Part shown: positions 25,811 through 45,330 of the stretch, piece by piece | Numbering within the stretch: the first letter of the stretch is position 1 | Layout: each line of letters begins with the position of its first letter | From: an uncultured Thermoplasmata archaeon | GTDB taxonomy: Archaea; Thermoplasmatota; Thermoplasmata; Halarchaeoplasmatales; Halarchaeoplasmataceae | DNA: 64,000 nucleotides | Assembly (NCBI GenBank): GCA_964585175.1 | Contig: CAZPCW010000001.1 | Location: 12,314-76,313 of the forward strand | Reading direction: 5' to 3' | Made by a program: the position numbers and the translations under genes | The notes under the pieces: model-generated | Seen by the model: the letters and a program-made list of their open reading frames with translations, nothing else | The model's database searches: none | Told to the model about the DNA's origin: nothing

Positions 25811-27460
25811 ATGTCTCCCGTACAGCAGCATGAAAGTTCATTGGCGCAAGCTAGAAAGAGGAACCCGCACCTTAATGAATATATCAAGGGGCTACAAAGT
25901 AGAGGCATCGACGTTCCTGTATTGAAAAATAGGGTGGATAGAGATCTAAAAGATCAAAACGAAGTGAATATAATATATCCTATAGGTGATCCTATCTTCG
26001 TCCACGTTTATGGGACCGAGAACAGTGGATACAATTACAACGGGATAGAACCTGAATTAGATACTGAAAGCAGGGAACTCCTTCAAGAAATACAGGATTT
26101 TATCTTTGAAAAAGCTGCTTTTGAAGACGTAAAAGACGATCCAGAAAAATTAAAAGATCTTATCGAAGAATCCGTTGAGGAATTCGTCGATAAGGAAACC
26201 AGTGGACTATTATTCAGCAGGGATATACCAAAAGAGAGGGTGAGAAGAGTAAAATACAGACTGATGAGAGATCTGGCTGATCTAGGACCTCTTGAACCTC
26301 TTATGAGAGATCCTTATATAGAAGATATTTACGTAGTTGGTTTAGAACCTATCAAACTCATCCATAAGATATTCGATGAGATGAAGACTAATCTACAATT
26401 CGAGACAATGGAGAAGCTCGATGAATATCTAGTCAATCTAGGGGATAGAGTCGACGTGGATGTGAACGCTTCGGATGCTGTATTTGACACTGCAATGCCA
26501 GATGGATCTAGACTTAATATAATATATCCCGAAGATATTTCGATAAAAGGACCCAGTTTTACGATAAGAAAGTTCGAAGAGACACCTCTTACAATGCCAC
26601 AGATAATTAAGTGGAATACATTCAGTCCGAGGATGGGTGCATACATGTGGCTAGCCATGGAGCATGGCATGTCTGTCATCGTTTCCGGAGAGACAGCTTC
26701 GGGTAAAACTACTACTTTTAACTCAATGTTACCATTCATTCCTCATAACAATAAGGTTTACTCGGTTGAAGATACGGCAGAAGTCCAACCCCCTCAAGAG
26801 ACTTGGCAGCAGATGATAATCAAAGAATCGGAAGACGAGCAGATATCTGTCGAATACTTTGACCTTATAAAGGCCGCTATGAGGAGTAGACCAGAGGCTC
26901 TCCTTGTGGGAGAGATCAGAGGTGAAGAAGGTAATATCGCTTTCCAGGCCATGCAGACCGGTGTACCCGTCATCTCCACTTTCCACGCAGCTTCAGTCCA
27001 CAAGTTAATACAGAGGATGAGTGGAGAACCGATAAACGTTCCTTTACACTTTTTCCCGAATCTTGATTTCGTCGTTATACAGCAGGCGGTTTATGTTGGT
27101 GGTGAATTTCTGAGAAGGATGTTAGCTCTAACCGAGATAACCGGTTACCTGAGAGAAGAAGACAGCGTAGAGGTCCGAGAGATATTTGGATGGGATCCTG
27201 TCAGTGACAGTTTCGACTTTAGAGGAAAATTTAACAGTCAGCTTTTAGAAGAAAAGATAGCTCCAAGGATGGGTTTTGATGATAAAAGAGACATATATTT
27301 GGAGCTGGAAAAAAGAGCCCAGATAATCAAAAACATGATCAGAGAAGATATATTGGGTTATGATGAGGTAATAGAGACACTAAGAAAATGGCATAGAGGA
27401 GGTATGGAATCTCTGCCTCCCCGTTTAAGAGTAAAAGATTCCCAGGTTAGCATAAAATAA
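25811..27460 (+). CDS. arlI: ArlI (FlaI) archaellum motor ATPase (type II/IV secretion ATPase family)
   Basis: Walker A motif SGETASGKTTTFNSMLPFIP, Asp box, His box (STFHAAS) and an N-terminal FlaI-specific domain. It lies immediately upstream of arlJ. Confidence 0.85.
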   Translation: MSPVQQHESSLAQARKRNPHLNEYIKGLQSRGIDVPVLKNRVDRDLKDQNEVNIIYPIGDPIFVHVYGTENSGYNYNGIEPELDTESRELLQEIQDFIFEKAAFEDVKDDPEKLKDLIEESVEEFVDKETSGLLFSRDIPKERVRRVKYRLMRDLADLGPLEPLMRDPYIEDIYVVGLEPIKLIHKIFDEMKTNLQFETMEKLDEYLVNLGDRVDVDVNASDAVFDTAMPDGSRLNIIYPEDISIKGPSFTIRKFEETPLTMPQIIKWNTFSPRMGAYMWLAMEHGMSVIVSGETASGKTTTFNSMLPFIPHNNKVYSVEDTAEVQPPQETWQQMIIKESEDEQISVEYFDLIKAAMRSRPEALLVGEIRGEEGNIAFQAMQTGVPVISTFHAASVHKLIQRMSGEPINVPLHFFPNLDFVVIQQAVYVGGEFLRRMLALTEITGYLREEDSVEVREIFGWDPVSDSFDFRGKFNSQLLEEKIAPRMGFDDKRDIYLELEKRAQIIKNMIREDILGYDEVIETLRKWHRGGMESLPPRLRVKDSQVSIK

Positions 27461-29140: not shown

Positions 29141-30751
29141 ATGGAGAGGAAGTTAAAAGCCCATATGAAAAAAAATCCCTTTTTAGGGAGCTACATAAAA
29201 AGGGTCAGAAGAGAAGTAGGTGTGCCAAAATTTAGAGAGGAATGTCCAGATTGGGGAGACGTGAGGGATGATTTCAATATAATGTATCCCATAACAGATC
29301 TAGTTTATATCCATTGTTACGTTTCCGAGGACGAAGAGAAGCATTATATCGCGGTAGAACCCCCACTAAATGAAGAAAGGCAGGAAAAACTTGAGAAGGC
29401 TAAGAAGTATATCTATAGAGAGGCGGATTACGAGAAGGAGATCGAATACAGAGAAGAATTGAGGGAAATGATCCATGATATTTTTGACAGGATCGTGGGT
29501 GAAGGAGGAGGTTTCTTTTCGAAACTCCAAGGTAGGACATTAGACGTAGATGATGATGAGATACCTATCTTGAAATATTATGTTGTGAGAGACCTAGTAG
29601 ATTATGGAGTTCTTGATCCACTGATCAACGATCCTAATATCGAAGATATAAATTGTGTGGGAACAGAGCCTCTTACTATTATTCACCAAACATTTGGAAG
29701 GATAAAAACGAACATCTCATTTGACTCTGAATTTGAATTAGATGAATATCTGAAAAGACTAAGCCAAAGAATAGGCAGTCCGGTCGGTGAAGCTCATCCC
29801 ATCGTGGATACGGCTATGCCGGACGGATCTAGAATAAACATCGTTTATCCAGAAGATGTTTCTACCAAAGGCAGATCATTCACGATACGAAAATTTCCAG
29901 ATGATCCTATCTCTATAACCAATCTTATTGAATGGAATACTTTATCCCCAGAATTGGCTGGATATATATGGCTCTGTTTGGAAAACTCCATGTCCATCTT
30001 CATATGCGGAGAAACAGCTTCGGGTAAAACAACTACTCTGAACGCTTTTCTCCCTTTCATACACCTTGATAGTAAACTTTACAGCGTGGAAGACACCCCT
30101 GAAGTGCAGCCACCACACGATAATTGGCAGCAACTCATAGTCAGAGAAGAGGGAGCAGAAGATGAGCAGGTCGGTCAGTTCGATCTTTTGAGAGCAGCCC
30201 TCCGTTCAAGGCCAGATTATATAGTTCCCAGTGAGATAAGAGGAGAAGAAGGTAGAGTGGCGTTTCAGGGCATGCAGACAGGCCATCCTGTCATATCGAC
30301 TTTCCATGCCGACTCCATACACAGGATGATCCAGCGACTAACCGGCGAGCCTATCAGGATCCCGATAACTTTCATAGATAATCTGAACGTAGCGGTGATA
30401 CAAGACAGCTTTAGAACCAAAGGGGCCGTTTTGAGAAGAGTAACTGAGGTTGGAGAGATCATGGGTTACTCTGAAGAACAGGATGGAGTGATGATGAGGG
30501 TGGTATTCAAAAGAAATGAACAGGAAGATGAGCTGGAATTCGAAGGTATGTACAACAGCTTTATTCTAGAGGATAAGATCGCACAGATCCAAGGTTACGA
30601 CGATACTAGAAAAATCTACGATGTGATGGAAGAAAGAGCCCAGTTCTTAGAAGATCTCACGAGAAAAGGTATCTACGATTACGATAAGGTGGCGCAGCTG
30701 ATAGACGAATACAGGAAAGGCGGTAGAGAAAATCTTTCAATAAGGCTTTAA
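29141..30751 (+). CDS. Second ArlI/FlaI-like secretion-family ATPase (paralog)
   Basis: Walker A motif CGETASGKTTTLNAFLPFI, His box STFHADS, and the same domain order as ArlI (about 45% identity by eye: MYPITDLVYIHCY against IYPIGDPIFVHVY). It sits 7 nt after arlJ with no adjacent second TadC-like gene. Confidence 0.7.
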   Translation: MERKLKAHMKKNPFLGSYIKRVRREVGVPKFREECPDWGDVRDDFNIMYPITDLVYIHCYVSEDEEKHYIAVEPPLNEERQEKLEKAKKYIYREADYEKEIEYREELREMIHDIFDRIVGEGGGFFSKLQGRTLDVDDDEIPILKYYVVRDLVDYGVLDPLINDPNIEDINCVGTEPLTIIHQTFGRIKTNISFDSEFELDEYLKRLSQRIGSPVGEAHPIVDTAMPDGSRINIVYPEDVSTKGRSFTIRKFPDDPISITNLIEWNTLSPELAGYIWLCLENSMSIFICGETASGKTTTLNAFLPFIHLDSKLYSVEDTPEVQPPHDNWQQLIVREEGAEDEQVGQFDLLRAALRSRPDYIVPSEIRGEEGRVAFQGMQTGHPVISTFHADSIHRMIQRLTGEPIRIPITFIDNLNVAVIQDSFRTKGAVLRRVTEVGEIMGYSEEQDGVMMRVVFKRNEQEDELEFEGMYNSFILEDKIAQIQGYDDTRKIYDVMEERAQFLEDLTRKGIYDYDKVAQLIDEYRKGGRENLSIRL

Positions 30752-30775: not shown

Positions 30776-31651
30776 TCATTTATTATATTGATTTTCTAAG
30801 TAATTTATATTAGAATAGATATCTTCAATACGAGCTTCAGTCAAACCGATCAAAGGTCGTAAAATCAGAGTGTCTATTTCTTTTTTAGAGAAATTTGGTA
30901 ATCTTTCTCCGAGAACTATCGCCTCGATCTCTTCGGGCAGATCCTTATCTAGCATCTCCTTTAAACTAGAAACTTCTTCCTTTCTCAGATTCGGATCCCA
31001 TCTCTCTAATTTATTACCCCACTTAGGATCGCTAAAATAAACGTATGGTCTCGCACCTCTTTTCATCATCAACCATGTTGCGATTAAATCCGTTCTATCA
31101 TCTACATATGCGGCTACTTTACCCTGAGAACTTAAAGGCAAACCGCCTGGTCCATTTTTCCCGTTCTTGATTATATATGCCCTGTTGTGTCTTATCTCTA
31201 TTTTGAACTTGTGATCAGGTTCATCTAGGTTTACTTCTAACTCCGGATTTTCTTTTAGAATCAAGGCCCCTAGCTCTTCTTCTATATCTTGGCTACCAAA
31301 TTCGTGATCTCCTACCCTTTTGACTCTGACAGCGAATTGACCGTCGATATCATCTGCAAATCTTTCAGCTTCTTCTTTGATTTTTCTTAAATCCGCTTCG
31401 ATAGATTCTATTTCTTCACATTTACTATAAGAGACGACTCCGAATATTCTAGAGAAGAATCCGGCGTTTTTTTCCTGCGTATAAGCAAATATCCTTCCAT
31501 GATGGCGTCCCTCCACAATCACTTCTTTATCTCTAGAAAGAAAAGTTCTCTCTATGTTTTGTATCAATATATTTTTAAAATCCTTACGAATCCTAGGGCT
31601 TTTCGTTCCGAGTTCTCCGTAACGAATCAGATATAACTGAAAATCACTCAT
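30776..31651 (-). CDS. ThiI-like THUMP-domain protein with a degenerate PP-loop (short paralog of tRNA 4-thiouridine synthase)
   Basis: N-terminal ferredoxin-like plus THUMP region (LIRYGELGTKSPRIRKDFKNILIQNI). The C-terminal half aligns to the ThiI adenylation domain (LMMKRGARPYVYF, LILRPLIGLTE). At the SGGxDS PP-loop position the nucleotides at 31090-31140 read GKVAAYVDDRTDLIA. Only 291 aa. Confidence 0.55.
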   Translation of the reverse strand: MSDFQLYLIRYGELGTKSPRIRKDFKNILIQNIERTFLSRDKEVIVEGRHHGRIFAYTQEKNAGFFSRIFGVVSYSKCEEIESIEADLRKIKEEAERFADDIDGQFAVRVKRVGDHEFGSQDIEEELGALILKENPELEVNLDEPDHKFKIEIRHNRAYIIKNGKNGPGGLPLSSQGKVAAYVDDRTDLIATWLMMKRGARPYVYFSDPKWGNKLERWDPNLRKEEVSSLKEMLDKDLPEEIEAIVLGERLPNFSKKEIDTLILRPLIGLTEARIEDIYSNINYLENQYNK

Positions 31652-31670: not shown

Positions 31671-32192
31671 TCACCAGCTGCCTTCGTGTATCAATTCTTC
31701 TGCACTCATCTTTTCAGGAGAAGTTGGTTCTTCTGTCGGATACCCGACAGGTATCATTGTTACCGGTCTAACTCCCGCAGGAATTTTAAGCTGATCCGCC
31801 ACTTTTTCTTCCTCAAAGGCCCCTACCCAAACTGCGGCATAACCTTTGTCGACTACGGCTAAGAGCATATTTTCTACCGCAGCGCTAGCGTCCTGTATAG
31901 AATACAGTTCTCTTCCTCTATCTCCATATCTTTCCGCAGATCTTTCTTTATTGGCACAAACCACTATCACCCATGCAGCTTCGCCGATAAACGATTGCCC
32001 GTGAGCATTTTTTACTAACTTTTGCTTTTCTTTCTCATCTCCAACGAGAATAAAATCTCTAGCCTGAAGATTACCAGCGGAAGGGGCCATATGTCCCAGC
32101 TCGATGATCTCTTCGATATCCTCTTTAGGAATATCTTTTTCTTTGAAACTCCTCACGCTTCGTCTCTTCTTGACCACTTCCCTAAACTCCAT
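31671..32192 (-). CDS. Nitroreductase-family NAD(P)H-flavin oxidoreductase
   Basis: RRSVRSFKEKDIPKEDIEEIIELGHMAPSAGNLQARDFILV. The likely start is MEFREV at 32190-32192, which abuts the flavodoxin stop; the track start at 32240 is over-extended. Confidence 0.7.
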   Translation of the reverse strand: MEFREVVKKRRSVRSFKEKDIPKEDIEEIIELGHMAPSAGNLQARDFILVGDEKEKQKLVKNAHGQSFIGEAAWVIVVCANKERSAERYGDRGRELYSIQDASAAVENMLLAVVDKGYAAVWVGAFEEEKVADQLKIPAGVRPVTMIPVGYPTEEPTSPEKMSAEELIHEGSW

Positions 32193-32194
32193 TT

Positions 32195-32686
32195 CTAGAC
32201 CTCCAAACCCGATATTTTTTCCATAAATTCGGCCATCCATTCACCGTAATAACGGCATTGTTTGAGTTCGTTTTCGTCGGGATCACCGATCACTACGGGA
32301 CCGTAGTGATCTCCTTTAGGCATGCCTTTTACTATCATCCCGTGTATGATCAAGCTTTCTAGAAGCGCCATGATAGTGGTTTCGTTTCCTCCGGCGGTAT
32401 TAGCGCTAGAGGTGAAGGCGCCACCTACGATTCCATCAAGATCTCCGTGATGAGTTATACTTTCATCCAAAAATTCCTTCATTTCAGCACTGGGAAGTCC
32501 GTAATAAGTGGGAGATCCGAGTATAATACAGTCGTATTCAGGCAGAGACTCTACGTCAGCTTCTTCGACTGACTTCAAATCTATCTCAATAGAGGCGTCG
32601 CTTTCTTCCGCACCCTCAACTATCTTTTCGGCCATTTCTTCAGTCGTACCACCCTTCGAATAATAACAGACTAACATCTTCGACAT
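32195..32686 (-). CDS. Flavodoxin-like FMN-binding protein
   Basis: MSKMLVCYYSKGGTTEEMAEKIVEGAEE matches the flavodoxin phosphate-binding loop (S/T-x-T-G-x-T). 163 aa. Confidence 0.65.
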   Translation of the reverse strand: MSKMLVCYYSKGGTTEEMAEKIVEGAEESDASIEIDLKSVEEADVESLPEYDCIILGSPTYYGLPSAEMKEFLDESITHHGDLDGIVGGAFTSSANTAGGNETTIMALLESLIIHGMIVKGMPKGDHYGPVVIGDPDENELKQCRYYGEWMAEFMEKISGLEV

Positions 32687-32744: not shown

Positions 32745-33740
32745 TCACTCTTCTCTTTTTTTCTCCTCAAGTTCACAAAGTAGATCAACTATTTCCTCGG
32801 ATTTTTCCTTTTCTAGGGAGACCTCTTCATCATAAAACCCAGATTTTTTTTCTCCCACAAATTGACCGATATTAGTCAATTTTAGGATTATATCCTCTGT
32901 TTTGATCACCTTTTTTTCTTCCAACCTCGTGATAATGCTTTTAAACCTCTCCAAATCCAGGTTGAGGGTCTCAGCTATCTTAGTAGCCAAAAATTGGTTA
33001 CCGCTCTCAAGAGAATTCAAAATTTTTACGACTTTCAATTCCTTTTGATTTAAAGTAGGGATCTTTTGTTCTTCTCTCAAGAAGCAACTCTCAAAGTACT
33101 GTAAAATCATCGAGACTGAAGTATTGACGGGATATATCACATCCACTATCACTTCATCTTCGTTCTCGTTTTCCCCGTCTTCGTAATATATTTTTAAAGA
33201 GTTTTTACCCTTCAGTTCCTCAGTAGCCACGAACAAAATCTTCTTTCGGGGGATCGCTAAAAGTCTATTGTCTTCTCCAAGTATCTGAACGTGCTCTGTA
33301 CCCTTACCTCTATATTTTCCTTCTTTCCATTCTTTATCCTTATTTACCTTTTCTCCGACTTGATATTTTGTTATGTAATTAATCTTGGCACCCGACATTA
33401 TTTGCCTTAAAATAGTTCTTTTAAGCTTTCTTTTAGAAGAAGTTTTTATCAACGCTAGATATCCGCCGTCGGAGGTCATGAAATTAAATGTCAATACGTT
33501 GTGTTCCCTAGCTTTCAAAAAGTTTATCTGACGATCGAGGTAAAAAATTGAGTTCAATTCGATCCTTTTGGTCTCTTCCTTCGTTTCATATATAAGTTTA
33601 TCTGGGGTGAGATATATCTTGGAAGGTGTCCATTCTTTTTCTTTGTAAAAATCCTCTTCAACTTCATTGATAGTTCCCGCAGGTATGATCGCTTGTACTT
33701 CCTCCTCAAACTGAACATTTCTTCTACCTATATTAAACAC
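32745..33740 (-). CDS. CheF-like protein (archaea-specific che/archaellum adaptor family, DUF439-like), paralog A
   Basis: Co-linear homology with the two tandem genes at 38957 and 39880: AIIPAG..., (K)IYLT/YLVYK, LIKTS.K..LKRTIL, ...KDKEW.KG, IYYED/IRYEKDDEE, and a C-terminal winged-helix-like region. It is co-operonic with a PAS-HK, a REC and a CheB-methylesterase domain protein. Confidence 0.5.
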   Translation of the reverse strand: MFNIGRRNVQFEEEVQAIIPAGTINEVEEDFYKEKEWTPSKIYLTPDKLIYETKEETKRIELNSIFYLDRQINFLKAREHNVLTFNFMTSDGGYLALIKTSSKRKLKRTILRQIMSGAKINYITKYQVGEKVNKDKEWKEGKYRGKGTEHVQILGEDNRLLAIPRKKILFVATEELKGKNSLKIYYEDGENENEDEVIVDVIYPVNTSVSMILQYFESCFLREEQKIPTLNQKELKVVKILNSLESGNQFLATKIAETLNLDLERFKSIITRLEEKKVIKTEDIILKLTNIGQFVGEKKSGFYDEEVSLEKEKSEEIVDLLCELEEKKREE

Positions 33741-33747
33741 CTCAGAA

Positions 33748-34320
33748 TCACTTCTTAAACAATTCTATAAGTTTAGCTCTGATACCTTCGGGTTTTAAGA
33801 TAAACTCCACACTGCCGGTATCTATAGCACCCTCGGGCATATGTGATATTATCGCGGAAGAGACTTTTTGTGCTATAGTGGTGCCTCCAATGCTGTCTAT
33901 ATGCTCAATACCTTCGATACCGTCATGCCCTATCCCGCTCAGTAAGATGCCTACATACTCATGATCCTTTTTTATATCTAAACTTTTCATCACCCCGTCT
34001 ATAGAAGGACAAGCAAAACTTTCTTTAGGACATTTGGAAAAAGAAATTTTAGAGTTATCTTTTATATCGAGTTGCTTTTTCGAAGGTGCAATATAGATCG
34101 TTCCGCTTGACAAGCGTTCGTCCTCCGCAAGTTTCACTTCCATTTTCGTGAGACTGTTGATCCTTTTTACCATACCTTCGTTTAGCTGTTTAGACATGTG
34201 CTGAACGATTATTATAGCCGCGTCTAACTCGGGCAGATGGGAGAATATAACTTTTAAAGCGTTGGGTCCCCCAGTCCCGGAACCTATAACTACTATATTT
34301 TTGCACAATTCAGACGACAT
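33748..34320 (-). CDS. Standalone CheB-type methylesterase catalytic domain (no receiver domain)
   Basis: VVIGSGTGGPNALKVIFSHLPELDAAIIIVQHMSKQL, IYIAP, CPSIDGVM, LSGIGHDGIEGIEHIDSIGGTTIAQ. The Ser-His-Asp triad positions are present. 190 aa. Confidence 0.75.
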   Translation of the reverse strand: MSSELCKNIVVIGSGTGGPNALKVIFSHLPELDAAIIIVQHMSKQLNEGMVKRINSLTKMEVKLAEDERLSSGTIYIAPSKKQLDIKDNSKISFSKCPKESFACPSIDGVMKSLDIKKDHEYVGILLSGIGHDGIEGIEHIDSIGGTTIAQKVSSAIISHMPEGAIDTGSVEFILKPEGIRAKLIELFKK

Positions 34321-34327
34321 ATTTTCA

Positions 34328-34702
34328 TTATTCCATATATTTCCAATATTCCGAGATCTTTTCTTTTATTTCTTCACTAGTTACTGGTTTCCGGATATAA
34401 TCTATAACGTACTTTTGAAGATCCTTTCTATTTTCAGCCGGTGAATCCTTTGCCGTGAGCATCGATATCACAATATTCTGCATGTCAAATCTGTCCGCGA
34501 TCCCTCGAACCGTCTCCCATCCGTCCATATCGGGCATCATCACGTCCATCAATATTATACCTTCAAAACCTTCGTCTAAAGTATCCAAACATTCTTTTCC
34601 GCTCTCTACCGTTATCACTTCTAAATCCTCGTCTTCCAATATCCTCTCTAAAGTATAGAGGAGGTGAGGATCATCATCCACGATCATGATTTTTCTATCC
34701 AT
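34328..34702 (-). CDS. Single-domain response regulator (REC)
   Basis: KIMIVDDDPHLL...GIILMDVMMPDMDGWETV...YIRKPV is a CheY-like receiver fold with the phospho-acceptor Asp in MDVMMP. Its stop is adjacent to the HK start. Confidence 0.8.
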   Translation of the reverse strand: MDRKIMIVDDDPHLLYTLERILEDEDLEVITVESGKECLDTLDEGFEGIILMDVMMPDMDGWETVRGIADRFDMQNIVISMLTAKDSPAENRKDLQKYVIDYIRKPVTSEEIKEKISEYWKYME

Positions 34703-36163
34703 CTAAAGCATCTCCTTCTGTTCTTTGGGCAGTTCTATACAGAAGACAGTCCCTTTTCCATCTTCAGATCTTTCTGCCCATATATTGCCATTGTGGTTTT
34801 CTATTATATATTTTGAGATTGGTAAACCCAAACCGGTGGATTCTAGTTTATGTTTAGTTTTTCCGGTAGTATAAAAGTACTTAAAGATATTCTCTAACTC
34901 TTCTTCTTCCAAATTTCCACCCGTATCTCGGAACTTGATGATAACCGAATCCTCTTTTTCCTCCGCACCGATAAACATTTTACCTTCTTTAGATAAATGT
35001 TCAAGAGAGTTTTTAGCTAAATTATCGAATACTTCAAAAAGACCCATCTTGTCAACTTCTATCCGGGTATCTAACTCGATTTCATTCCTAAATTCTATAT
35101 TCCACTTTTCTTCTATCTCATCCAAATTTCGCCCCTTGAAGTTCGACAACCAATCTTCAACAAGTTCTTTAACTTGAACAGATTGCAGACCCGTTTTTCT
35201 ACCGCTTTTACTGTATTCAGCTATCTTCAATATGTGTTCAAGCAATTCTTTCAGGTAAAGCGCATTTTTTTCACAGATTTCTAGGTCTTTTTGGATGATT
35301 TCATCGTCAAGCTTTTTGCCAACTTTGTCTTTCACCATAGGAATCAAATTGACCAATGGACTCACCGGTGTTTTGAGGTCATGACTCAATCTATGTATTA
35401 TATTTTCTCTCTCTTCTAAAAGATCTTTCAATCTTTGTTCAGCTTTTTTTCTTTCCGTCACGTCTTCCGCAAATCCTAAATATCGATCTTTCGATATTTT
35501 TACCGCATTTACTATCCAATACCCTTTAGACCCGCCTTTTCTTTTGTAAGGGAGTTCTATTTTCATCTTTCCTCTTTCGAGAAGTTTATCAAAAGACTCT
35601 TTCGCCTTCCCTCGAGCGTTAGAAGTAGTTATATCTGATATATTCATTTCTAGCATCTCTTTTTCTGAATATCCAGTCATCTCACAGGCGCTTTCATTGA
35701 TTTCGAGATAGTCACCCTTCGAATCGACTACGAAGACGCCGCTCGGTGCATTTTCTACATAACTTCGAAATTTTTCTTCACTTTTCTTTAATTCCTCCTC
35801 GGCTTTTTTTCTCTCAGTTATATCTCTAGCTACGCTCAGTACAACTTTTTCATCTTTGAATTTAATCAGTGAGGAATTTATTTCGACAGGTATCTTCCTT
35901 CCATCCTTTGTTTCGTGTTCAGCCTTAAAAGTGAGATGTCCTCTTTTCTTTATTTCCTCCAATCTCCCCTCTACCAAGGGTTTGCTCTCTTCAGAATCTA
36001 ATTCATAAGGCGTCATCTCCATAAATTCATCTCTACTGTATCCATATCTTTCTACGGCGGCTCTATTTACCTTTATGAATCCACCATCTAGATTATGGAC
36101 GAAAACGGCGTCCTTCATCCCGTCCAAGATATGTTCGTATTTTTTTTCATCATCAAAAGACAT
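34703..36163 (-). CDS. PAS/PAC sensor histidine kinase
   Basis: Two PAS-like segments (AVFVHNLDGGFIKVNRAAVERYGYSRDEF...; GVFVVDSKGDYLEINESACEMTGYSEKEM), H-box IIHRLSHDLKTPVSP, and HATPase_c G-boxes (FRDTGGNLEEEELENIF, TGLGLPISKYIIENHNGNIWAE). Confidence 0.8.
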   Translation of the reverse strand: MSFDDEKKYEHILDGMKDAVFVHNLDGGFIKVNRAAVERYGYSRDEFMEMTPYELDSEESKPLVEGRLEEIKKRGHLTFKAEHETKDGRKIPVEINSSLIKFKDEKVVLSVARDITERKKAEEELKKSEEKFRSYVENAPSGVFVVDSKGDYLEINESACEMTGYSEKEMLEMNISDITTSNARGKAKESFDKLLERGKMKIELPYKRKGGSKGYWIVNAVKISKDRYLGFAEDVTERKKAEQRLKDLLEERENIIHRLSHDLKTPVSPLVNLIPMVKDKVGKKLDDEIIQKDLEICEKNALYLKELLEHILKIAEYSKSGRKTGLQSVQVKELVEDWLSNFKGRNLDEIEEKWNIEFRNEIELDTRIEVDKMGLFEVFDNLAKNSLEHLSKEGKMFIGAEEKEDSVIIKFRDTGGNLEEEELENIFKYFYTTGKTKHKLESTGLGLPISKYIIENHNGNIWAERSEDGKGTVFCIELPKEQKEML

Positions 36164-36302
36164 GATTAGCTTCCCCCGGCCTTTAATTCTTTATCTCTAC
36201 TCTTCTTTATAAAGGTAACTTTTTCATAAACAGGGGTTAGTAAATTTCAGTTTCTGAAAAGTTACAGGAACTTTTTTTTAGTTTCTCTCTTATGACCGTT
36301 TA

Positions 36303-38873
36303 ATGAGTTCCTTGGACGAGTTGATCTCAAATCTTGGCCGATTCTGGAAAAGAAAAAATGCTTTCCAAGAACTAGTAAAGAAAGGAAAGAAAGATCCAGA
36401 AGAGGTTGTTCCTAAACTCCTGAGAAGATTAGAAAGTAATGGCGGTAAGGTTGAGAAGAGAATCAAAAAAGTGTATGAAGAAATAGCGAAGGATATCGAT
36501 CTTGTTCCCATACTCTACAGTGTTCCAACTGTTGAGAATCTATGGACTTTTACAGAAAGTGATAATTCTATTTCCTGCGTATGTGCAGGGGAATTGGATG
36601 ATGATAATATCATGGCGGTTGGGTCTAGATCGGGAACAGTCTACATCTTGGATAAGGAAGGAGAGGAGAAGTGGAAAAAAGAGGATATAACAAGCGGTAT
36701 CAGCAGTCTCTTGGTAGATGAACTTGGAGACAAAAAGGTCGTTATAGCAGGATCGGGAAAGGCTTTCGGCAGTTCAGAGGAAAATAACGTTTACGTATGG
36801 AGCGAAAAGGGGGGATCTATTTGGACTGGAATTCAACCAGAATCTTGGATCACCGATTTAAAGACCGGGAGATTGAAGGGGAGGAATGTTGTAGTAGCGG
36901 GATGCGGAGGTTTGGAGGTCAGGTCCACCAATCTGATCGTATGGGATGAAGAAGGAAATCTCTTATGGGCTAGAGATGAACCAAATTCATGGATAAGCGG
37001 AGTAAGGATCACGGAACTAAATGGAAAAAAAGCCGTTATAGGTAGTTCGGGAGATAACAATATTTACGGGTGGGACGCTACTGGAAGTTTGGTATGGGAG
37101 GGGACGGAGTCAGAAGAATCTTTAGTCGGTCTAACAGTAGGCGATTTAGGAGGAAAAGAGGGTATTATAAGCATATCTTCAAATGTTTATGCATGGGACA
37201 AGAAAAAAAATCTCTTGTGGAAGAGTACTCATCCCGATTCTTGGCTCAGATGTGTTGATCTTGGTGACTTCAATGGTAAAAAGATGATAGTCGCAGGTTC
37301 AGAAGAAGGAATCGTGTACGGATGGGATGGAAAAGGTGATCTTGTGTTCAAAGACGAATCCCTAAACGGTGAGATCAATACGATCAAGATCGGAGAGATC
37401 GACGGGAAAAATGTCATAGTCGCCGGAACGAAAGTTGGCAGCCTTTACATTTGGAAAGAAGAAAGCTCTTTTCCTTCGGTATCTAACGTACCAAGAGACG
37501 CCATAAATGAGATCGCTTTTGGAAATTTTGAAGATCAAAATGTCATGATTTCAGGATCTGAAGATAAAAAAGTCTATGTCTTCAGGTATGAACTTACAAC
37601 TTTAGATGATCTTATTTCAAATACTGAAGAAGTAATACCAGTTCCCGATCTGAAAAGAAAATATAAAAAATTGAAAAAATCGGTAGATACCGATACGCCG
37701 GGTAAAGACAAAGAGATATACAATAGATTTCTCAAGCTCGGCGAAAAGATCAAAAATAGACAGGACAAAGGAGATGAGATAATAAGTGACATGAAGACCA
37801 TACAGGAGCACATCGAGAAGTTTAGAGATAAAGGAATAGATACAAGCGGTTTAACAGATAGATTTGAAAGATCAAAAATATATCTGAAAGATGGAAAGAT
37901 TAGGAATTGTGAAAATTATCTTGACGATCTATTGAAGGATTTATCCGATATCCAGAAAAGATTAGACAAGAAGAAAGAAAAAAACAAAAAGATAAGGAAT
38001 TGGATAGAAAAACTTGAAGTAGATATCGACACTGAGTCGATCCCAAAAGAGGCTATAGAGAATCTTGAACCGATCTATTCCAAATATGAAGAGATCTTAA
38101 AAGAACTCATAATAGAGGAAAATATAGATGAATTAAGAGAAAAGATACAGAAATTTGACAAAGTAACCGATAAGTACCATGAAGTGTCGGCCCAACATCG
38201 TAATGCTTTCAAAGTTTCAAAAAATTTAAACGAATTCGTGACTGAAAGATTGAAAAACCTGAAATCCGATCGTCAAAAACTGAAAAGATTGAAGCGTAAA
38301 AAAGAACTAGCTTTGAAAAATATACAGGACTCTACAAGCAGTGTCATCCTACAGTCACGATCACAGAAAACGTGGATCTCACCTGATGACCTATTAAATA
38401 GGATTAGAGAAATAGAAGATAAACTAAAAAATACTTTAGAAGATTTAATGTTGGATATAGTAAAAAACACTGTGGATATAAAAATGAAGATAGGATACGA
38501 AAACCAAGAATTCTTCATTCCAAAAGGCTATCCCTCAAAAGAAAAAGTAAATTTTGGATTGAGAAAGATTCGAGAAGAAATAAAGGAGATAGATGACGAG
38601 TCTTTAGAGAAAAGTATAGATTTCAATAAATTGAACCAAAAAATCGGCAATTCCGATCTAAAAACCTCTTCAAAGTTGATGAATGATATCGCTCATGAGA
38701 TATTTAGATACAAGGCTATTCTTAGTTTAGAAGAAACTCTGAAAAGTGAAGGAAACAGTAAAAGTTTGTATGAAAATTTTGAAATTCCAGAGGACTTTAA
38801 AACTAATATTCTAGCAAGGATAAAAAGAAAGAAAAAAGAAGTGAAAGCGAAAATGATCGAAATCCAAAAATAG
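36303..38873 (+). CDS. Beta-propeller (PQQ/WD-like repeats) protein with a long C-terminal Lys/Glu-rich coiled coil
   Basis: The N-terminal 430 aa or so is tandem 40-aa blades with conserved (V/I)YxWD...G.LxW and interleaved G(K/R)xVVIAGS (NVYVWSEKGGSIW, LIVWDEEGNLLW, NIYGWDATGSLVW, VYAWDKKKNLLW, IVYGWDGKGDLVF). The C-terminal 420 aa is K/E/I-rich with heptad character. It sits between the HK operon and the cheF paralogs. Confidence 0.5.
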   Translation: MSSLDELISNLGRFWKRKNAFQELVKKGKKDPEEVVPKLLRRLESNGGKVEKRIKKVYEEIAKDIDLVPILYSVPTVENLWTFTESDNSISCVCAGELDDDNIMAVGSRSGTVYILDKEGEEKWKKEDITSGISSLLVDELGDKKVVIAGSGKAFGSSEENNVYVWSEKGGSIWTGIQPESWITDLKTGRLKGRNVVVAGCGGLEVRSTNLIVWDEEGNLLWARDEPNSWISGVRITELNGKKAVIGSSGDNNIYGWDATGSLVWEGTESEESLVGLTVGDLGGKEGIISISSNVYAWDKKKNLLWKSTHPDSWLRCVDLGDFNGKKMIVAGSEEGIVYGWDGKGDLVFKDESLNGEINTIKIGEIDGKNVIVAGTKVGSLYIWKEESSFPSVSNVPRDAINEIAFGNFEDQNVMISGSEDKKVYVFRYELTTLDDLISNTEEVIPVPDLKRKYKKLKKSVDTDTPGKDKEIYNRFLKLGEKIKNRQDKGDEIISDMKTIQEHIEKFRDKGIDTSGLTDRFERSKIYLKDGKIRNCENYLDDLLKDLSDIQKRLDKKKEKNKKIRNWIEKLEVDIDTESIPKEAIENLEPIYSKYEEILKELIIEENIDELREKIQKFDKVTDKYHEVSAQHRNAFKVSKNLNEFVTERLKNLKSDRQKLKRLKRKKELALKNIQDSTSSVILQSRSQKTWISPDDLLNRIREIEDKLKNTLEDLMLDIVKNTVDIKMKIGYENQEFFIPKGYPSKEKVNFGLRKIREEIKEIDDESLEKSIDFNKLNQKIGNSDLKTSSKLMNDIAHEIFRYKAILSLEETLKSEGNSKSLYENFEIPEDFKTNILARIKRKKKEVKAKMIEIQK

Positions 38874-38956: not shown

Positions 38957-39826
38957 ATGGGAAAACAAAACGTACTGTATAACCAAGTAGAAAAGGCGAT
39001 AATACCCGCCGCAGAAGGTGATCGATACTTTAGAAATAAAGACTGGATCAAAACAACTGTTGCAGTAACTGGAGAATATCTAGTCTATAAAAATTCGGAA
39101 GGCGAAGGTTCGATTCCATTGAATGAAATCTACTATATGGATAGAAAAGTGGGCTACTCGAAAGCTCAAGGGGGAGCTGTTCTCAATTTCAATTATAAGC
39201 AGAATGGAGAAACTTATATGGGGTTGATAAAGACGTCCCATAAAGATTACTTGAAGAGAACTATACTTATTGCAACTATTTCGAATATTCCCATCTATTT
39301 TATTTCTCCCTACCAGAGCGGAGGAAGGATTCATACCGATAAAGAATGGAAAAAAGGAATTTTTCAGGTGACTAAGAACAAGGTCATAATTAAATCTCCA
39401 AACGGTTCGGTGGTTAATGAAATACCCGAGAGAAAAATATTCGGTGAAAGTGAGGATAAAATTAAGGGATACGATGCCATAAAGATCAGATACGAGAAAG
39501 ATGACGAGGAATTAGCTGATCTGATGTTCTCGCCGGAAGTTTCATTGGCTATACTGAGCGATTTCTTTTCTGAAGTTCTGATGAAGAAAAAGGGTAAAAA
39601 AAGAAAACTTTCAGAAGATGAAAAAGAAATCATGATGGCTATCCAGACGGGGATCAATTCTTCCACCGAAATAGCCGAATTGATGGAGATGGATCACGAA
39701 GATGTATTAAACTCTATAGACACGCTAAAGGATAAGAACGTGATAAATATAGTCGGAAGAGAAAAAATAGTCGAGTTAAGTTCAGAAGGAAAACAGGCTT
39801 TAGATGATTCAGGCGAATCGATGTGA
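38957..39826 (+). CDS. CheF-like protein (DUF439-like), paralog B
   Basis: Same family as 32745 and 39880. Directly upstream of cheW-cheR and facing cheA-cheB. Confidence 0.55.
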   Translation: MGKQNVLYNQVEKAIIPAAEGDRYFRNKDWIKTTVAVTGEYLVYKNSEGEGSIPLNEIYYMDRKVGYSKAQGGAVLNFNYKQNGETYMGLIKTSHKDYLKRTILIATISNIPIYFISPYQSGGRIHTDKEWKKGIFQVTKNKVIIKSPNGSVVNEIPERKIFGESEDKIKGYDAIKIRYEKDDEELADLMFSPEVSLAILSDFFSEVLMKKKGKKRKLSEDEKEIMMAIQTGINSSTEIAELMEMDHEDVLNSIDTLKDKNVINIVGREKIVELSSEGKQALDDSGESM

Positions 39827-39879: not shown

Positions 39880-40743
39880 ATGGCTCAAGATCAATTGTAT
39901 AACAATGTTGACGAAGCGATAATACCAGCTGGACAAGGAGGAAAGATCAAGGGGAATTTAAGCTGGGAGAAGACAAGGATAGTGATCACCAGTAAATACT
40001 TGATATACAAAGGGATGAATTCTGAGGGTTACATACCACTCAACAATATATTTAATATGGATAAAAAATTAGATTTTCAAAAAGGAAAGGGAAAAAATAT
40101 ACTTAACTTCTTTTATACAAAAGACGAAAAAAACTATTTCGGTCTGATCAGATCTAATCAGAAGAGTTATCTAAAAAGGAGTGTTTTGGTCGCATCGATC
40201 TCGAGTATACCCATCTACTACATATCTCCTTATCGGGTTGGGGGAAGGATTAACACTAGTAAAGAATGGGAACGAGGTATTTTGGAAATAAATCCAAGAT
40301 CTATGAAGATAAAAAATGTGGGAGAAGAATTAGTAAACGAATTATCCGAGGATGATATATATAGAATAGATTCTGACAAGGTAAAAGGTCATGATGCGGT
40401 AAAGATAAGCTACGAGAAAAACGAAGAAGAATTCACCGATCTCCTTTATTCTCCGGGTATTTCTCTCTCGATCCTTTACGATTATTTCGAAGAAATTTTG
40501 ATAGGAAAAGACGTTACGGATATAACTATCTCTGAACTGGAAAAGGAGATGATCTTGGCGATCGAAAGTGGTATCAACTCGTCTAAAGAACTCTCGGATC
40601 TGATCGAAAGTGACCATGAAAAGGTCTTAAATAGCTTGAAAAGATTGAAGGAAAAAGGGTTAATAGAAGAGATAGGCATAGATAAGATTGTTGATCTCAC
40701 ATCTCAAGGTAAAAAGAAGATAGGCGATTCGATAGAAAGGTGA
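39880..40743 (+). CDS. CheF-like protein (DUF439-like), paralog C
   Basis: About 45% identical to paralog B along the whole length. C-terminal wHTH-like block EKEMILAIESGINSSKELSDLIESDHEKVLNSLKRLKEKGLI. Confidence 0.55.
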   Translation: MAQDQLYNNVDEAIIPAGQGGKIKGNLSWEKTRIVITSKYLIYKGMNSEGYIPLNNIFNMDKKLDFQKGKGKNILNFFYTKDEKNYFGLIRSNQKSYLKRSVLVASISSIPIYYISPYRVGGRINTSKEWERGILEINPRSMKIKNVGEELVNELSEDDIYRIDSDKVKGHDAVKISYEKNEEEFTDLLYSPGISLSILYDYFEEILIGKDVTDITISELEKEMILAIESGINSSKELSDLIESDHEKVLNSLKRLKEKGLIEEIGIDKIVDLTSQGKKKIGDSIER

Positions 40744-42130: not shown

Positions 42131-44096
42131 TCTTTATCCAGTGAAGCGTGTCGAGTATCATCGCTATAGTACCGTCTCCAAGTATCGTTGCCCCCATGAA
42201 TCCTCCGAGACCCTGAAGATGTTCCGGCAGCGGTTTTATAACTATCTCCTTTTCGGTTAGGACGTCGTCTATAACTAGACCGGCGGTCTTTCCTTCTTTG
42301 GAAACGATCGAGACTTTTAGCTTTTCTTTTTCCTCTTTTATAGAACTCGCAGGATATCCTTCAAACTCCTCTTGCAGATAGATAAGAGGTAAATATTCAT
42401 CCCTGATTTTCACGAAATCATTTCCTTTGATTTTTTCTATCTGCTCCAAATCGACCTGAGCAGTTTCAACTACGTCTTCTAAAGGTACAGCGTAAGTACC
42501 GTCTCCGACCTTAATCAGGAATGCCTGAACTATTGCCACCGAAGGAGGTAATGTCAATCTGATAGTTGTACCTTCATCGATCTCTGACTCAACGTTTACT
42601 TCTCCACCAAGAGAATCCATGGTTTTCTTAACCACTTCCATGCCAACTCCTCTTCCAGAGACTTTAGTAACCTCGTCTTTGGTGGAGAAATGGGAATTGA
42701 ATATAAACATGTATAAATCTTCATCTGATATTTCTTCAGCTTCTTCTTCGTCTATAAGATCATTATCGATGGCCTTTTCCTTGATCTTCTCTTTATTCAA
42801 TCCTCGACCGTCATCGCTTACTTCTATTACAACGTTCTCCTCTTTTTGGGTCGCGGCTAGTTTGATCTTACCTTTTTTTGGCTTTCCCTTCTTTTCTCTT
42901 TCTTCTACAGGCTCAATACCATGATCTATAGCGTTCCTCAAAAGATGAACTAAAGGATCGGTTATTCGGTCGAGAATGGTTCTATCCAGCTCTATTTCTT
43001 CACCCTGCATTTCGAAATCGACCTTTTTATTATTCTCCTTAGCAAGATCTCTCACCATCCTCGGGAAGCGTCTAAAGACGGTCTTGACTTCCGTCATCTT
43101 CATGTCTAGGACCGATTCTCTCAACTCGCTGGATATCCTGTCTATTCTCCCGGTCACATTAGAAAGTCTATCCGATTCCAAAGAGCGAGAAAGATCTTCC
43201 AAAGTACCTTTTGAAATAACTAATTCACTTACTAGGTTCATTATATGTTCGATATCTTCTAGGTCTACCTTTATCTTGTCCGATGTCGAAATCTTTTTTT
43301 CCTTCTTTTTCTTTTTTTCCTTTTTTTCTTCGGTTTCTTCTTCCTTTTCTGGTTTTTCTACCCCCTTCTTTTGCTTTAGGAGACCTTCTCCAGCTCCTCT
43401 TCTTACTTCGATTGTTAACCCGGCTGTTTTATCTAAATCTTTTTCTTCTATCTCTTCTTCAGTCACGATATAAAACTGGTTATGCTGTGGATCTACTTCA
43501 TCAGGATCGGGATAGAACATTTCACATTCAAAATCTAACTTTTCTTGGACCTCCATGCCTCTAACAGCGGGCAGCTTTTCCTCTTGAGAAACTTCCAATA
43601 TACCTAAGGAGATCTCTTCCTCTGCTTTTTCTTTTAATTTCTCTTGCACTTCGTCTGGGACATCTATCTCTTCTATTTCTTCAGACTCTTCGACTTCAAC
43701 CTCTTCTTCAGTGCTCCCCTCTTCCTTTGTAACTTCACCTCCTTCTATTAGCTCGTTGAGCTCATTTACCAAATGGCCATAATCTTCGTCTTCTCCGCTA
43801 GCGAGTATTTCTATGGTGTCAACACATTCAAAAAGAAGATCGAAAAGCTCTTCCTCTACCTTACCCCCTTCGCCCTTCAACTTATCAAAAAGTTCCTCCA
43901 TCCTATGACTTATCTTCTGGATACCGTCATAACCCATTGTGCCCGCCATACCCTTCAAAGTATGGCTGGCTCTATAGATTTCTTCTATCAATTCGATATC
44001 CTTCGGATCATCTTCCAATGCCAAAAGATTCTCATTCATCTTTTCAATTTGTTCTCTTGTCTCTTCTTCAAACATTTCTTGATATTCTTCACTCAT
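42120..44096 (-). CDS. cheA: Chemotaxis histidine kinase CheA
   Basis: Hpt P1 with H-box ASHTLKGMAGTMG, a dimerisation domain, HATPase_c (VIEVSDDGRGLNKEKI...STKDEVTKVSGRGVGMEVVKK) and a C-terminal CheW-like P5 (DGTYAVPLEDVVE...AGLVIDDVLTEKEIVIKPL). Confidence 0.9.
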   Translation of the reverse strand: MSEEYQEMFEEETREQIEKMNENLLALEDDPKDIELIEEIYRASHTLKGMAGTMGYDGIQKISHRMEELFDKLKGEGGKVEEELFDLLFECVDTIEILASGEDEDYGHLVNELNELIEGGEVTKEEGSTEEEVEVEESEEIEEIDVPDEVQEKLKEKAEEEISLGILEVSQEEKLPAVRGMEVQEKLDFECEMFYPDPDEVDPQHNQFYIVTEEEIEEKDLDKTAGLTIEVRRGAGEGLLKQKKGVEKPEKEEETEEKKEKKKKKEKKISTSDKIKVDLEDIEHIMNLVSELVISKGTLEDLSRSLESDRLSNVTGRIDRISSELRESVLDMKMTEVKTVFRRFPRMVRDLAKENNKKVDFEMQGEEIELDRTILDRITDPLVHLLRNAIDHGIEPVEEREKKGKPKKGKIKLAATQKEENVVIEVSDDGRGLNKEKIKEKAIDNDLIDEEEAEEISDEDLYMFIFNSHFSTKDEVTKVSGRGVGMEVVKKTMDSLGGEVNVESEIDEGTTIRLTLPPSVAIVQAFLIKVGDGTYAVPLEDVVETAQVDLEQIEKIKGNDFVKIRDEYLPLIYLQEEFEGYPASSIKEEKEKLKVSIVSKEGKTAGLVIDDVLTEKEIVIKPLPEHLQGLGGFMGATILGDGTIAMILDTLHWIKTTS

Positions 44097-45145
44097 TATT
44101 TCTCCTCCATAAACATATCAACCAATTTCTTTCCAATTTCAGAAGGTGTTCCTTCAAAATCAGGAGTTGTTTTATTTTTCGCAGATTTAGGCATCCCATA
44201 TACAACGGAACTCTCTTCATCTTGGAGGGCAAGAAAACCATCGTTATCTTTTACTATTTTAGCTCCGGTAGCTCCATCCTTTCCCATTCCAGTCAAAACT
44301 ACCCCAATAACTTTATCCCGATATACTTCGGCGGCGGATTGGAAAAGATAATCCGCAGAGGGTCTAACGCCGTGTAATTTGGGTTTTTTCTTGAGGACTA
44401 TAGATTTCTCTTCATTCCATTCTCTTACCATTCCATGATAGTCCGAAGGGATTATGTAGATATTATTAGGTTCGATATTATCATGATCTTTAGCCTCCCT
44501 AACTGGGAGCTCAAGTTTTGAATTCAATGTAGAAGCTAGATATTCGGTAAAATCAGGGGGCATATGCTGGACTACAACGATAGGAACAGGGAAATTAGAG
44601 GGTAGATTAGATAGTAAGCTGTCTAAAGCTCTCGTCCCGCCTGTGGATGAAGCTATAGTGATAATATTATCTTTAAATTTTTCTGGGACGAATTCCTTTT
44701 CTATCGGCTTTCCCTTTTCCAACTCCAAAGATTCCATATCGGTCTTTCCAGCATTGATAACTTTTTGAGTGATCTCGTCTGATTTCTTCCTGATATCCAT
44801 CGATAAAGAACCAGATGTCTTTGGGATGAAATCCACAGCTCCCGCTTCTAGAGCCTTCACTGACATCCCAGTCTTCTTATCTTCCATCGCGGAAACTATA
44901 ACGACTGGTGTAGGATTGTCGGACATGATTTTTTTTACGGCGGTGAGCCCGTCCATCACGGGCATCTCGATGTCCATTAATATGACATCAGGATCTTTCT
45001 CTCTGTTAAGTTCTATAGCTTCTTCACCGTTACCACCAGTGCCTACTACTTCTATCTGTTCATTCTCTTCAAGTATGTCTGTTAATATGGTAACCATGAA
45101 ATTCGAATCATCTACTACGACAGCGCTGATTTTACTTGAAGTCAT
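44096..45145 (-). CDS. cheB: Chemotaxis methylesterase CheB (REC plus methylesterase)
   Basis: N-terminal receiver (VVVDDSNFMV...DVILMDIEMPVMDGL) and C-terminal esterase (IASSTGGTRALDSLLSNLP, VVVQHMPPDF, LTGMGKDGATG). Its stop overlaps the cheA start. Confidence 0.9.
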   Translation of the reverse strand: MTSSKISAVVVDDSNFMVTILTDILEENEQIEVVGTGGNGEEAIELNREKDPDVILMDIEMPVMDGLTAVKKIMSDNPTPVVIVSAMEDKKTGMSVKALEAGAVDFIPKTSGSLSMDIRKKSDEITQKVINAGKTDMESLELEKGKPIEKEFVPEKFKDNIITIASSTGGTRALDSLLSNLPSNFPVPIVVVQHMPPDFTEYLASTLNSKLELPVREAKDHDNIEPNNIYIIPSDYHGMVREWNEEKSIVLKKKPKLHGVRPSADYLFQSAAEVYRDKVIGVVLTGMGKDGATGAKIVKDNDGFLALQDEESSVVYGMPKSAKNKTTPDFEGTPSEIGKKLVDMFMEEK

Positions 45146-45312
45146 TTATCGAATTATGCTTAGGATGATATTTATAGTTTCTCAAGATTAACAAAATTTG
45201 CTATTAGTGATAGTGTCAGACGAATAGATAAATCAATAGAGGGTCAACTTGGGCATCCAGAGTGTTGTTATTACCCAATCGAAAAATATATAAGTAACTT
45301 ACTCGTTGTTTT

Positions 45313-45330
45313 GTCCGACAAAGTGTCAGA
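45313..45330 (+). promoter_or_regulatory. Tandem GTCnGAC sites (GTCCGAC-AAAGT-GTCAGAC) between a TATA-like box and the ATG at 45341
   Basis: The same architecture (GTCGGAC-GAAGT-GTCCGAC, 61420-61438, minus strand) lies between a TTTAAATAA box and the ATG at 61398. A third single site GTGTCAGACGAA is at 45214-45225. Confidence 0.45.

Follow-up and report, generated by a model that had tools for sequence, protein, structure and literature searches.

Judged from domain scans of its open reading frames (ORFs), the 64,000-nt stretch of DNA analysed here (the window) is an archaeal motility island; it is taken from contig CAZPCW010000001.1 of an uncultured Thermoplasmata archaeon. Its minus strand carries a string of seven genes, hereafter the cassette, which encode in order a sensor histidine kinase (HK), a single-domain receiver (REC), a protein made up of the CheB methylesterase domain only (the CheB-like protein), a CheF-arch-like protein ('CheF3'), a flavodoxin or WrbA-like flavin mononucleotide (FMN) protein, a nitroreductase-family protein and a ThiI-like protein with a ferredoxin-like and a THUMP domain (Table 1). 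An earlier note on this DNA had described the first four as tightly spaced genes in this order on the minus strand, followed by a flavodoxin and a nitroreductase gene; the ORFs and their domain calls hold, the successive gaps from HK to CheF3 being 0, 7 and 7 nt, and the two downstream genes were confirmed and belong to the string that is conserved in archaea. A gap of 58 nt separates CheF3 from the flavodoxin gene, and the nitroreductase gene, which probably starts at Met17 of its longest ORF and so encodes a protein of 173 aa (the length also called in all relatives), begins 2 nt past the flavodoxin stop codon. The THUMP gene closes the string and runs convergently to the archaellum operon.

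The intergenic DNA was inspected by direct reading, while a sigma-70 promoter and terminator scan was set aside and not used because the host is archaeal. A candidate archaeal TATA box (TTTATAAA) lies 42 nt 5' of the HK ATG, inside a divergent intergenic region (36164-36302), and no TATA-like element comparable to it was read in the 0-, 7- and 7-nt gaps of the first four genes.

The order HK, REC, CheB-like, CheF3, flavodoxin, nitroreductase and THUMP is kept in six non-redundant cassettes (the window, L004/L005/L012, L006/L007, L017, L052 and L053, the L numbers designating loci), with an amidohydrolase inserted in the string in the L006 variant; a scan of genome contigs with a single protein returned one locus only (L012). 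Since the same seven-gene order recurs in five further cassettes, whose proteins are 47-85 % identical to those of the window, the arrangement is not due to chance, and the seven genes from HK to THUMP are best explained, on this comparative evidence, as a single transcription unit that is conserved within a Thermoplasmata lineage. Wherever the flanking sequence is long enough (five cassettes), the string runs convergently towards the end of the archaellum operon, whereas the che cluster flanks its other side in the window and in L004 only, unrelated genes being found there elsewhere. The stable link is therefore with the motor genes and not with cheA, so that the position next to the canonical che cluster, which the earlier note had emphasized, holds for two cassettes but is not general, the archaellum operon being the constant neighbour. 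Pairwise identities between the window and L004/L006 indicate that the cassette genes (HK 57/47 %, REC 73/66 %, CheB-like 72/62 %, CheF3 76/58 %, flavodoxin 85/78 %) evolve at a higher rate than the fla and che core (FlaI 95/83 %; CheA 87 %, L004 only). The identity of the CheB-like protein keeps pace with that of REC and CheF3, which argues that its gene is not decaying.

Table 1. Coordinates in the window of the cassette genes, of the candidate promoter element and of che genes outside the cassette.
Feature	Position	Strand	Length and evidence
Sensor histidine kinase (HK)	34703-36163	-	486 aa; two PAS + HisKA + HATPase_c (Pfam, NCBIfam)
Single-domain receiver (REC)	34328-34702	-	124 aa; PF00072, 82.3 bits
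CheB_methylest-only (CheB-like) protein	33748-34320	-	190 aa; PF01339, 162.8 bits, profile positions 1-174 of 174
CheF-arch-like protein 'CheF3'	32745-33740	-	331 aa; PF04283, 30.4 bits (cut-off 25)
Flavodoxin / WrbA-like FMN protein	32195-32686	-	Pfam and NCBIfam scans, synteny
Nitroreductase-family protein	31671-32192 (longest ORF to 32240)	-	PF00881, 112.6 bits
ThiI-like protein, ferredoxin-like + THUMP	30776-31651	-	Pfam and NCBIfam scans, synteny
Candidate archaeal TATA box TTTATAAA	36206-36213	-	read directly from the sequence
Canonical full-length CheB (REC + esterase), outside the cassette	44096-45145	-	Pfam, alignment; nucleophile Ser intact (IASSTGG)
CheF1, che cluster	38957-39826	+	Pfam; C-terminal domain aligns to solved CheF 7OVP, 7OD9
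CheF2, che cluster	39880-40743	+	Pfam
Window CheY	45546-45908		

Both the CheB-like protein and its REC are closer to bacterial proteins than to their counterparts in the resident che cluster. The CheB-like protein is 29 % identical to the resident CheB, as opposed to 47-50 % to bacterial stand-alone proteins, and the REC is 27 % identical to the window CheY and to the receiver domain of CheB, as opposed to 41-45 % to the RECs that partner the bacterial proteins. The 20 word-indexed homologues of the CheB-like protein are all esterase-only (170-227 aa), the best-scoring clusters of an exhaustive representative search (about 45) are mostly of 186-215 aa, and the nearest CheB-domain relatives are stand-alones of 184-222 aa. 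All 142 REC homologues are single-domain, and come from Chloroflexota, Dehalococcoidia, Desulfobacteraceae, Pelotalea and Thermoplasmatota. The bacterial relatives at 47-50 % identity, which occur in bacterial-type contexts (LepA, SPOR, sigma-54 activators and RuvABC as neighbours), each have a single-domain REC gene directly upstream, and a CheB_methylest-only gene lies immediately downstream in the three REC homologues sampled (3/3). A metagenome scan added 35 loci, in which the pair was tabulated from the ORFs by phmmer. REC was found directly upstream of a stand-alone CheB in all archaeal and in about 28 bacterial loci, whichever partner was used to find them, with E-values of 1e-21 to 1e-39 for the partner REC, and the exceptions among loci with upstream sequence are L023 (no REC) and L048 (a weak, different REC). 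The gap between the two genes ranges from -56 to +101 nt in the bacterial loci, apart from L018 (595 nt), and the window has the same module, i.e., a single-domain REC gene directly upstream of and on the same strand as the gene for a CheB_methylest-only protein of ~190 aa.

These comparisons show that the archaeal pair goes back to a two-gene module that is widespread in bacteria and there still bears the catalytic Ser, and that REC plus stand-alone CheB is an old module, with a REC of its own single-domain family. The earlier note had interpreted the two genes as a split second CheB, which does not agree with the identities given above; gene fission or duplication of the resident cheB is ruled out by the same values (27 % for REC against CheB-REC, 29 % for the CheB-like protein) and by the single-domain nature of the 142 REC relatives. 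Its suggestion that the two proteins form a functional pair is, on the other hand, supported, in that the REC subfamily is found upstream in essentially every locus sampled. REC as an orthologue of the che-cluster CheY is also ruled out, its closest relatives being the CheBc-partner RECs. We found no description of the REC plus CheBc pair as a family in the literature searched, whose coverage is incomplete.

Bacterial pairs lie either inside a che operon together with a full-length CheB (L016) or far from any che gene. No che genes are found near the pair in L008, L011, L014, L015 and L020-L034, and in L009, genes for CheA-REC and CheW lie a few kb away on the opposite strand. A histidine kinase gene is found directly upstream of REC in six bacterial loci (L009, L015, L025, L026, L039 and L040). 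In seven non-redundant bacterial clusters the pair is preceded by a nitroreductase-family gene and then by a small R3H-like gene (~160 aa), the former ~950 nt upstream of the REC-CheB pair; this four-gene string spans 7573-9699 in L011 and has equivalents in L027, L029, L030, L032 and L033. The archaeal and bacterial nitroreductases are 24-27 % identical, so that their common descent is unproven, although the association is recurrent. The che operon of L016, from a Dehalococcoidia metagenome-assembled genome (MAG), reads MCP-CheW-REC-CheBc-CheA-CheX-CheD-CheY-CheB (1724-10390; MCP, methyl-accepting chemotaxis protein), and its combination of the pair with a full-length CheB mirrors the coexistence seen in the window.

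When the CheB-like protein is aligned to solved CheBs, Ser164 of 1A2O/1CHD stands opposite Gly15 (IGSGTGGP). The equivalent serine of P. atrosepticum CheB (6YMZ) belongs to the triad S165-H191-D287 (PMC7698151). Gly occupies the nucleophile position in all 11 members of the archaeal clade (61-100 % identity), as opposed to 0 of 156 other CheB domains taken from the 150 best representative clusters, where Ser is invariant, and all members of bacterial pairs keep this Ser (GSSAGGP, GSSTGGP or GISTGGP). Since the Ser-bearing relatives have GSSAGGP, the Ser at -1 is ancestral, and the change from Ser15 to Gly represents a loss and not a register shift. The Gly15 codon varies synonymously in the clade (GGG, GGT, GGC) and the relatives' Ser codons (TCN) are two substitutions away; this synonymous variation argues that the change is old and maintained. 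Moreover, Gly15 and CheF3 are found together in every cassette with downstream sequence.

The rest of the domain is largely that of a CheB. Among the positions conserved at 75 % or more in other CheB domains, the clade differs at four (S15G, H83Q, T128S and M130I) and retains 13 of 17 (G17, G18, Q40, H41, P105, S113, G129, G131, D133, G134, G137, M161 and P162). An AlphaFold2 (AF2) model of the protein (predicted local distance difference test, pLDDT, 91.3) superposes on 1CHD and 3SFT with TM-scores of 0.86-0.88 and a root-mean-square deviation of ~2 Å, and places Gly15 on the strand-turn-helix elbow. The protein has, in summary, the sequence and fold of a CheB methylesterase as well as the His41 (VQHM) and Asp133 (GxDG) of the triad, while the Ser nucleophile is missing. 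The earlier note had called it a 190-aa CheB catalytic domain lacking a receiver of its own and had presumed a methylesterase: the full PF01339 match and the absence of an own receiver stand, but the catalytic Ser is Gly, and given that this is so in all 11 clade members, the protein is probably not a methylesterase. From these alignments we take it to have the CheB fold, but consider serine methylesterase activity very unlikely. The literature searched gave no description of a serine-less CheB, although its coverage is incomplete and a prior mention is possible.

Some other CheB-like proteins also depart from the canonical form. Only one further CheB-like cluster, P0024 (L013, 202-831), has Gly in place of the nucleophile (IGSGTGGT). 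This degenerate orphan, with VHHTS/VTSID at the His/PSxD motifs, lies on a 1.4-kb contig where the upstream ORF is not a receiver. Tandem CheB catalytic domains occur in P0021 (383 aa), P0022 (405 aa), P0023, P0025 (557 aa) and P0030 (570 aa), and one CheB copy in P0025 and in P0030 is without the nucleophile motif (V-GAAGGL and IGADAGGM).

CheF3 aligns end to end with CheF1 (31 %) and CheF2 (27 %) of the che cluster. Its AF2 model consists of tandem pleckstrin homology (PH)-like domains and a winged helix-turn-helix (wHTH)-like C-terminal domain, and has the CheF structure 7OVP as its best match in the PDB (E 1.5e-8), followed by tandem-PH proteins. A PDB sequence search with CheF3 alone gave no matches, and a CheF profile gave weak matches to wHTH domains (MarR-type, E 1e-3 to 3e-2) and to the CheF C-terminal domain. 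In sequence and fold CheF3 is thus a CheF, and the third CheF recognized in the earlier note is a true paralogue; proteins of its type were found only in the archaeal cassette clade (4 clusters). CheF1 ends where 7OVP ends, whereas CheF3 runs ~30 charged or helical residues further, with a further helix predicted at 311-330, next to a C-terminal domain that is modelled at low confidence. In the known system, CheY-P binds to α5, α6 and α8 in the C-terminal domain of CheF, whose terminal carboxylate reaches into the site of phosphorylation in CheY, and function is lost when GFP is fused to the C-terminus (PMC9126983). It is therefore precisely at the receiver-contacting end that CheF3 differs, and by analogy the extension fits, but does not prove, a different receiver partner.

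Of the genes downstream of CheF3, those for the flavodoxin and the THUMP protein are conserved in every archaeal cassette. The THUMP protein scores 127.8 bits against TIGR00342 (cut-off 264.5) over profile positions 2-198 only, its PP-loop is degenerate (VDDRTD instead of SGGxDS) and its C-terminal domain is shortened; to judge from these features, it is probably an RNA-binding protein without adenylation activity.

The kinase has the organization of a two-component HisKA-type enzyme, with two PAS domains (~5-125 and ~130-243), a HisKA domain with the H-box His261 (SHDLKTP), and a HATPase_c domain (81.4 bits) with N-box (380), F (427) and G2 (444) motifs. It has no transmembrane segment (maximal 19-residue hydropathy 0.69), and HK, REC, the CheB-like protein and CheF3 are all four soluble. 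Its PAS domains match generic PAS profiles only (Pfam and NCBIfam). The second contains a single Cys (C160) in a common N-x-A-x-x-x-x-G-Y context, and the first is without Cys and hence not like a light-oxygen-voltage (LOV) domain. The phosphotransfer residues of the kinase are intact, and the phospho-acceptor set of REC is complete (D9, D10, D53, T83 and K105). As a PAS/GAF kinase often precedes the pair, the kinase is a plausible phosphodonor of REC, in line with the earlier note, which had favoured it over CheA. Its similarity to the kinases upstream of bacterial pairs is generic (24-32 %), so that orthology with them is unsupported and it was perhaps recruited independently. L006 (7636-8010, minus strand) and L007 (7176-7550, minus strand) have, divergently upstream of the kinase and beside an AbiEii-family gene, a gene for another receiver of the REC subfamily, which shares 53 % identity with the window REC.

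Around the cassette, the archaellum part of the window comprises seven archaellin genes, FlaF/G-like genes, FlaH, FlaI and FlaJ, and the che part comprises CheF1, CheF2, CheW, CheR, CheA, full-length CheB and CheY. The canonical cheB, with receiver and esterase, that the earlier note had reported was confirmed by the Pfam scan, and proteins of the window are identical to genes in the MAGs GCA_905333365 and GCA_905333585. No MCP, CheC or CheD was detected within the window in a scan that covered ORFs of at least 110 aa, though not all of them. The 400-nt spacer between cheB and cheY has as its sole ORF one of 59 aa (45311-45490, plus strand), whose product is acidic. At the end of the archaellum operon, FlaJ is followed by a gene for a second FlaI-like T2SSE ATPase (536 aa; 29141-30751, plus strand), additional to FlaI (25811-27460) and also present in L001, L004, L006, L052 and L053. 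A fusion protein of 1147 aa (20015-23458, plus strand) unites FlaC and DUF835 domains with a bactofilin domain at its C-terminus; it may join a switch protein of the ArlC/D/E type to a module that forms polymers. Finally, an 856-aa protein with a β-propeller and a long coiled coil (36303-38873, plus strand) is encoded divergently from HK and directly upstream of CheF1, and recurs in the che cluster of L004 (871 aa, 73 % identity).

Taken together, these data lead us to regard as somewhat probable that the cassette is a CheA-independent branch, running from a PAS kinase to a receiver, that acts on the archaellum by means of a dedicated CheF and of a CheB-fold protein that is no esterase (or a re-engineered one). 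The kinase would sense a cytoplasmic cue, perhaps redox-related given the co-operonic flavodoxin and nitroreductase, and would phosphorylate REC, which could then act on the CheB-like protein as its ancestral partner, on the tail of CheF3 (as CheY-P does on CheF), or on both. The CheB-like protein, presumably no longer a serine methylesterase, would more likely be a non-catalytic binding or adaptor subunit, while the demethylation of receptors would fall to the canonical CheB, whose gene lies 10 kb away. CheF3 would link this branch with ArlCDE, the switch of the neighbouring archaellum operon.

Several points weigh against this proposal. It rests entirely on comparative sequence evidence, and all the organisms are uncultured MAGs; the contact between REC and CheF3 in particular is one that we infer only from adjacency and from the analogy with CheY and CheF. 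The G1 box of the kinase (residues ~409-413) is imperfect, reading DTGGN and not DxGxG, with the last Gly replaced, and the C-terminal domain of CheF3 has a pLDDT of about 36-62. A link to receptors is not visible locally, since no MCP gene was detected in the window. At the active site of the CheB-like protein, His41, Asp133 and the Gly-rich loops are invariant in the clade, and Ser14, beside Gly15, is kept in 10 of 11 members. A scan for clade-specific invariant Ser, Cys, Thr or His residues returned H160, C97, S43 and S159. Among these, His160 was gained at a position that is normally the Gly of the F/Y-G-M-P motif (His in 0 % elsewhere), and Cys97 was likewise gained (4 % elsewhere) and forms with Cys104 an invariant C-x6-C. 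The retained residues and those gained at positions 160 and 97/104 mean that the active site could be re-engineered rather than dead.

It is from these residues that the protein might still be an active methylesterase or deamidase, using Ser14 or the new Cys/His arrangement and regulated in trans by REC, in which case the PAS kinase would reset MCP methylation and adaptation to an internal cue, in parallel to the CheA-controlled CheB. We consider this reading, a mended form of the one in the earlier note, possible but rather doubtful. The retained fold and conserved CheB positions are compatible with it, the bacterial sister modules keep Ser and lie in L016 inside a che operon and in L009 near CheA-REC and CheW, and a REC-less CheB works as an enzyme in C. 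jejuni (10.1101/2023.01.06.523011); however, the nucleophile is Gly throughout the clade and in none of the 156 other domains, and the spacing of a GxSxG-type elbow is absent around Ser14. A nucleophile shifted to Ser14 is itself unlikely, as active relatives also have Ser at -1, where it is not the nucleophile, and as P0011, the exception in the clade (GAGTGGP) and generally degenerate in sequence, has Ala at both 14 and 159. That the cassette is instead no taxis device, its pair acting on a non-receptor target and the wHTH-like domain of CheF3 serving as a REC-dependent regulator or adaptor for the flavodoxin, nitroreductase and THUMP genes, seems to us improbable. In the solved CheF structure, a C-terminal domain of the same wHTH-like topology serves dimerisation and CheY binding, which offsets the MarR-type matches of the CheF profile, and the only known role of CheF is that of an adaptor between CheY-P and ArlCDE (PMC9126983, PMC7289035). 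The many bacterial pairs without che genes nearby and the absence of a detected MCP in the window would suit such a function, but wherever the sequence extends far enough (five cassettes), the string abuts the 3' end of the archaellum operon; likewise, a nitroreductase-family gene stands beside the pair in seven non-redundant bacterial clusters, but the bacterial and archaeal enzymes share just 24-27 % identity.

Lastly, the lost nucleophile, the faster evolution of the cassette genes relative to core fla and che genes, and the degenerate appearance of P0011 and P0024 could be taken as signs that the cassette is a decaying relic of a horizontally acquired bacterial module, its esterase inactivated and without current function. 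This we regard as very improbable, because intact ORFs and gene order persist over six cassettes down to 47-62 % identity, 13 of 17 conserved CheB positions are kept while new invariant residues have been gained, and the Gly codon varies synonymously, all of which points to purifying selection.

Returning to a CheA-independent branch on the archaellum, a more specific and correspondingly more tentative version, which we would not rate as likely, is a second input to the archaellum switch in which a PAS histidine kinase feeds a non-CheY receiver docked on a dedicated CheF. The serine-free CheB fold would then be an adaptor or 'reader' (e.g., of the receptor methylation or amidation state) or a thiol/His redox-responsive element, and the targets of the parent bacterial pair would perhaps not be chemoreceptors.

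Each part of the cassette has counterparts in known systems. Canonical CheBs (S. enterica 1A2O/1CHD, T. maritima 3SFT, P. atrosepticum 6YMZ) resemble the cassette protein in fold, His, Asp, Gly-rich loops and association with a phospho-accepting receiver. In the cassette, however, the receiver is a separate gene of a different REC lineage, its likely phosphodonor is the PAS kinase and not CheA, and the CheB-like protein has the Ser to Gly, H83Q, T128S and M130I changes together with the gained His160 and C-x6-C. A stand-alone CheB catalytic domain also exists in Campylobacter jejuni (10.1101/2023.01.06.523011). It shares with the cassette protein its nature as a single polypeptide without receiver, whereas the cassette family has an obligate REC partner gene and an archaeal branch without Ser. 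We take the C. jejuni gene to lie in a che context and to lack a dedicated upstream REC gene. The closest likeness is to the bacterial REC plus CheBc module, which has the same orthologues in the same order and tight spacing, frequently a PAS/GAF kinase upstream and a nitroreductase-family gene nearby. That module keeps Ser and has no CheF, while the archaeal cassette adds Gly15, the CheF paralogue, the flavodoxin, the THUMP protein and the linkage to the archaellum.

The CheY-P/CheF/ArlCDE pathway (M. maripaludis, H. volcanii, P. horikoshii; PMC9126983, PMC7534055, PMC7289035) likewise combines a single-domain receiver and a CheF-fold adaptor beside archaellum genes. It differs from the cassette in that the cassette receiver is 27 % identical to CheY, the kinase is a PAS HK and not CheA, and CheF3 is 27-31 % identical to the resident CheFs with ~30 extra residues at the CheY-contacting terminus. 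In the literature searched, a 2018 review (PMC7289035) reports duplication of CheF, and only for a few haloarchaea. There too, an extra CheF (CheF2) stands beside CheF1, but the present locus belongs to Thermoplasmata and has three paralogues, the third in a two-component operon that is not a che operon.

Archaeal taxis is currently understood as a pathway from MCP through CheA, CheY-P and CheF to ArlCDE, with a single adaptation esterase. The parts of the cassette (PAS kinase, REC, CheB fold and CheF) are all of known kinds, and the literature searched, with incomplete coverage, held no description of an operon that combines a CheB-like protein with a CheF paralogue at an archaellum locus. 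The cassette looks like a side-input to archaeal motility that has so far gone undescribed, and like one assembled from a widespread and unstudied bacterial gene pair. Bacteria commonly carry this REC plus stand-alone CheB pair, in many cases outside che clusters, which raises the question of what is demethylated or deamidated there. If our reading is correct, the CheB fold would be recruitable as a non-esterase, with the first natural serine-less CheB clade as far as we have found, and some archaea would connect an ordinary two-component system to the archaellum through a CheF paralogue of its own.

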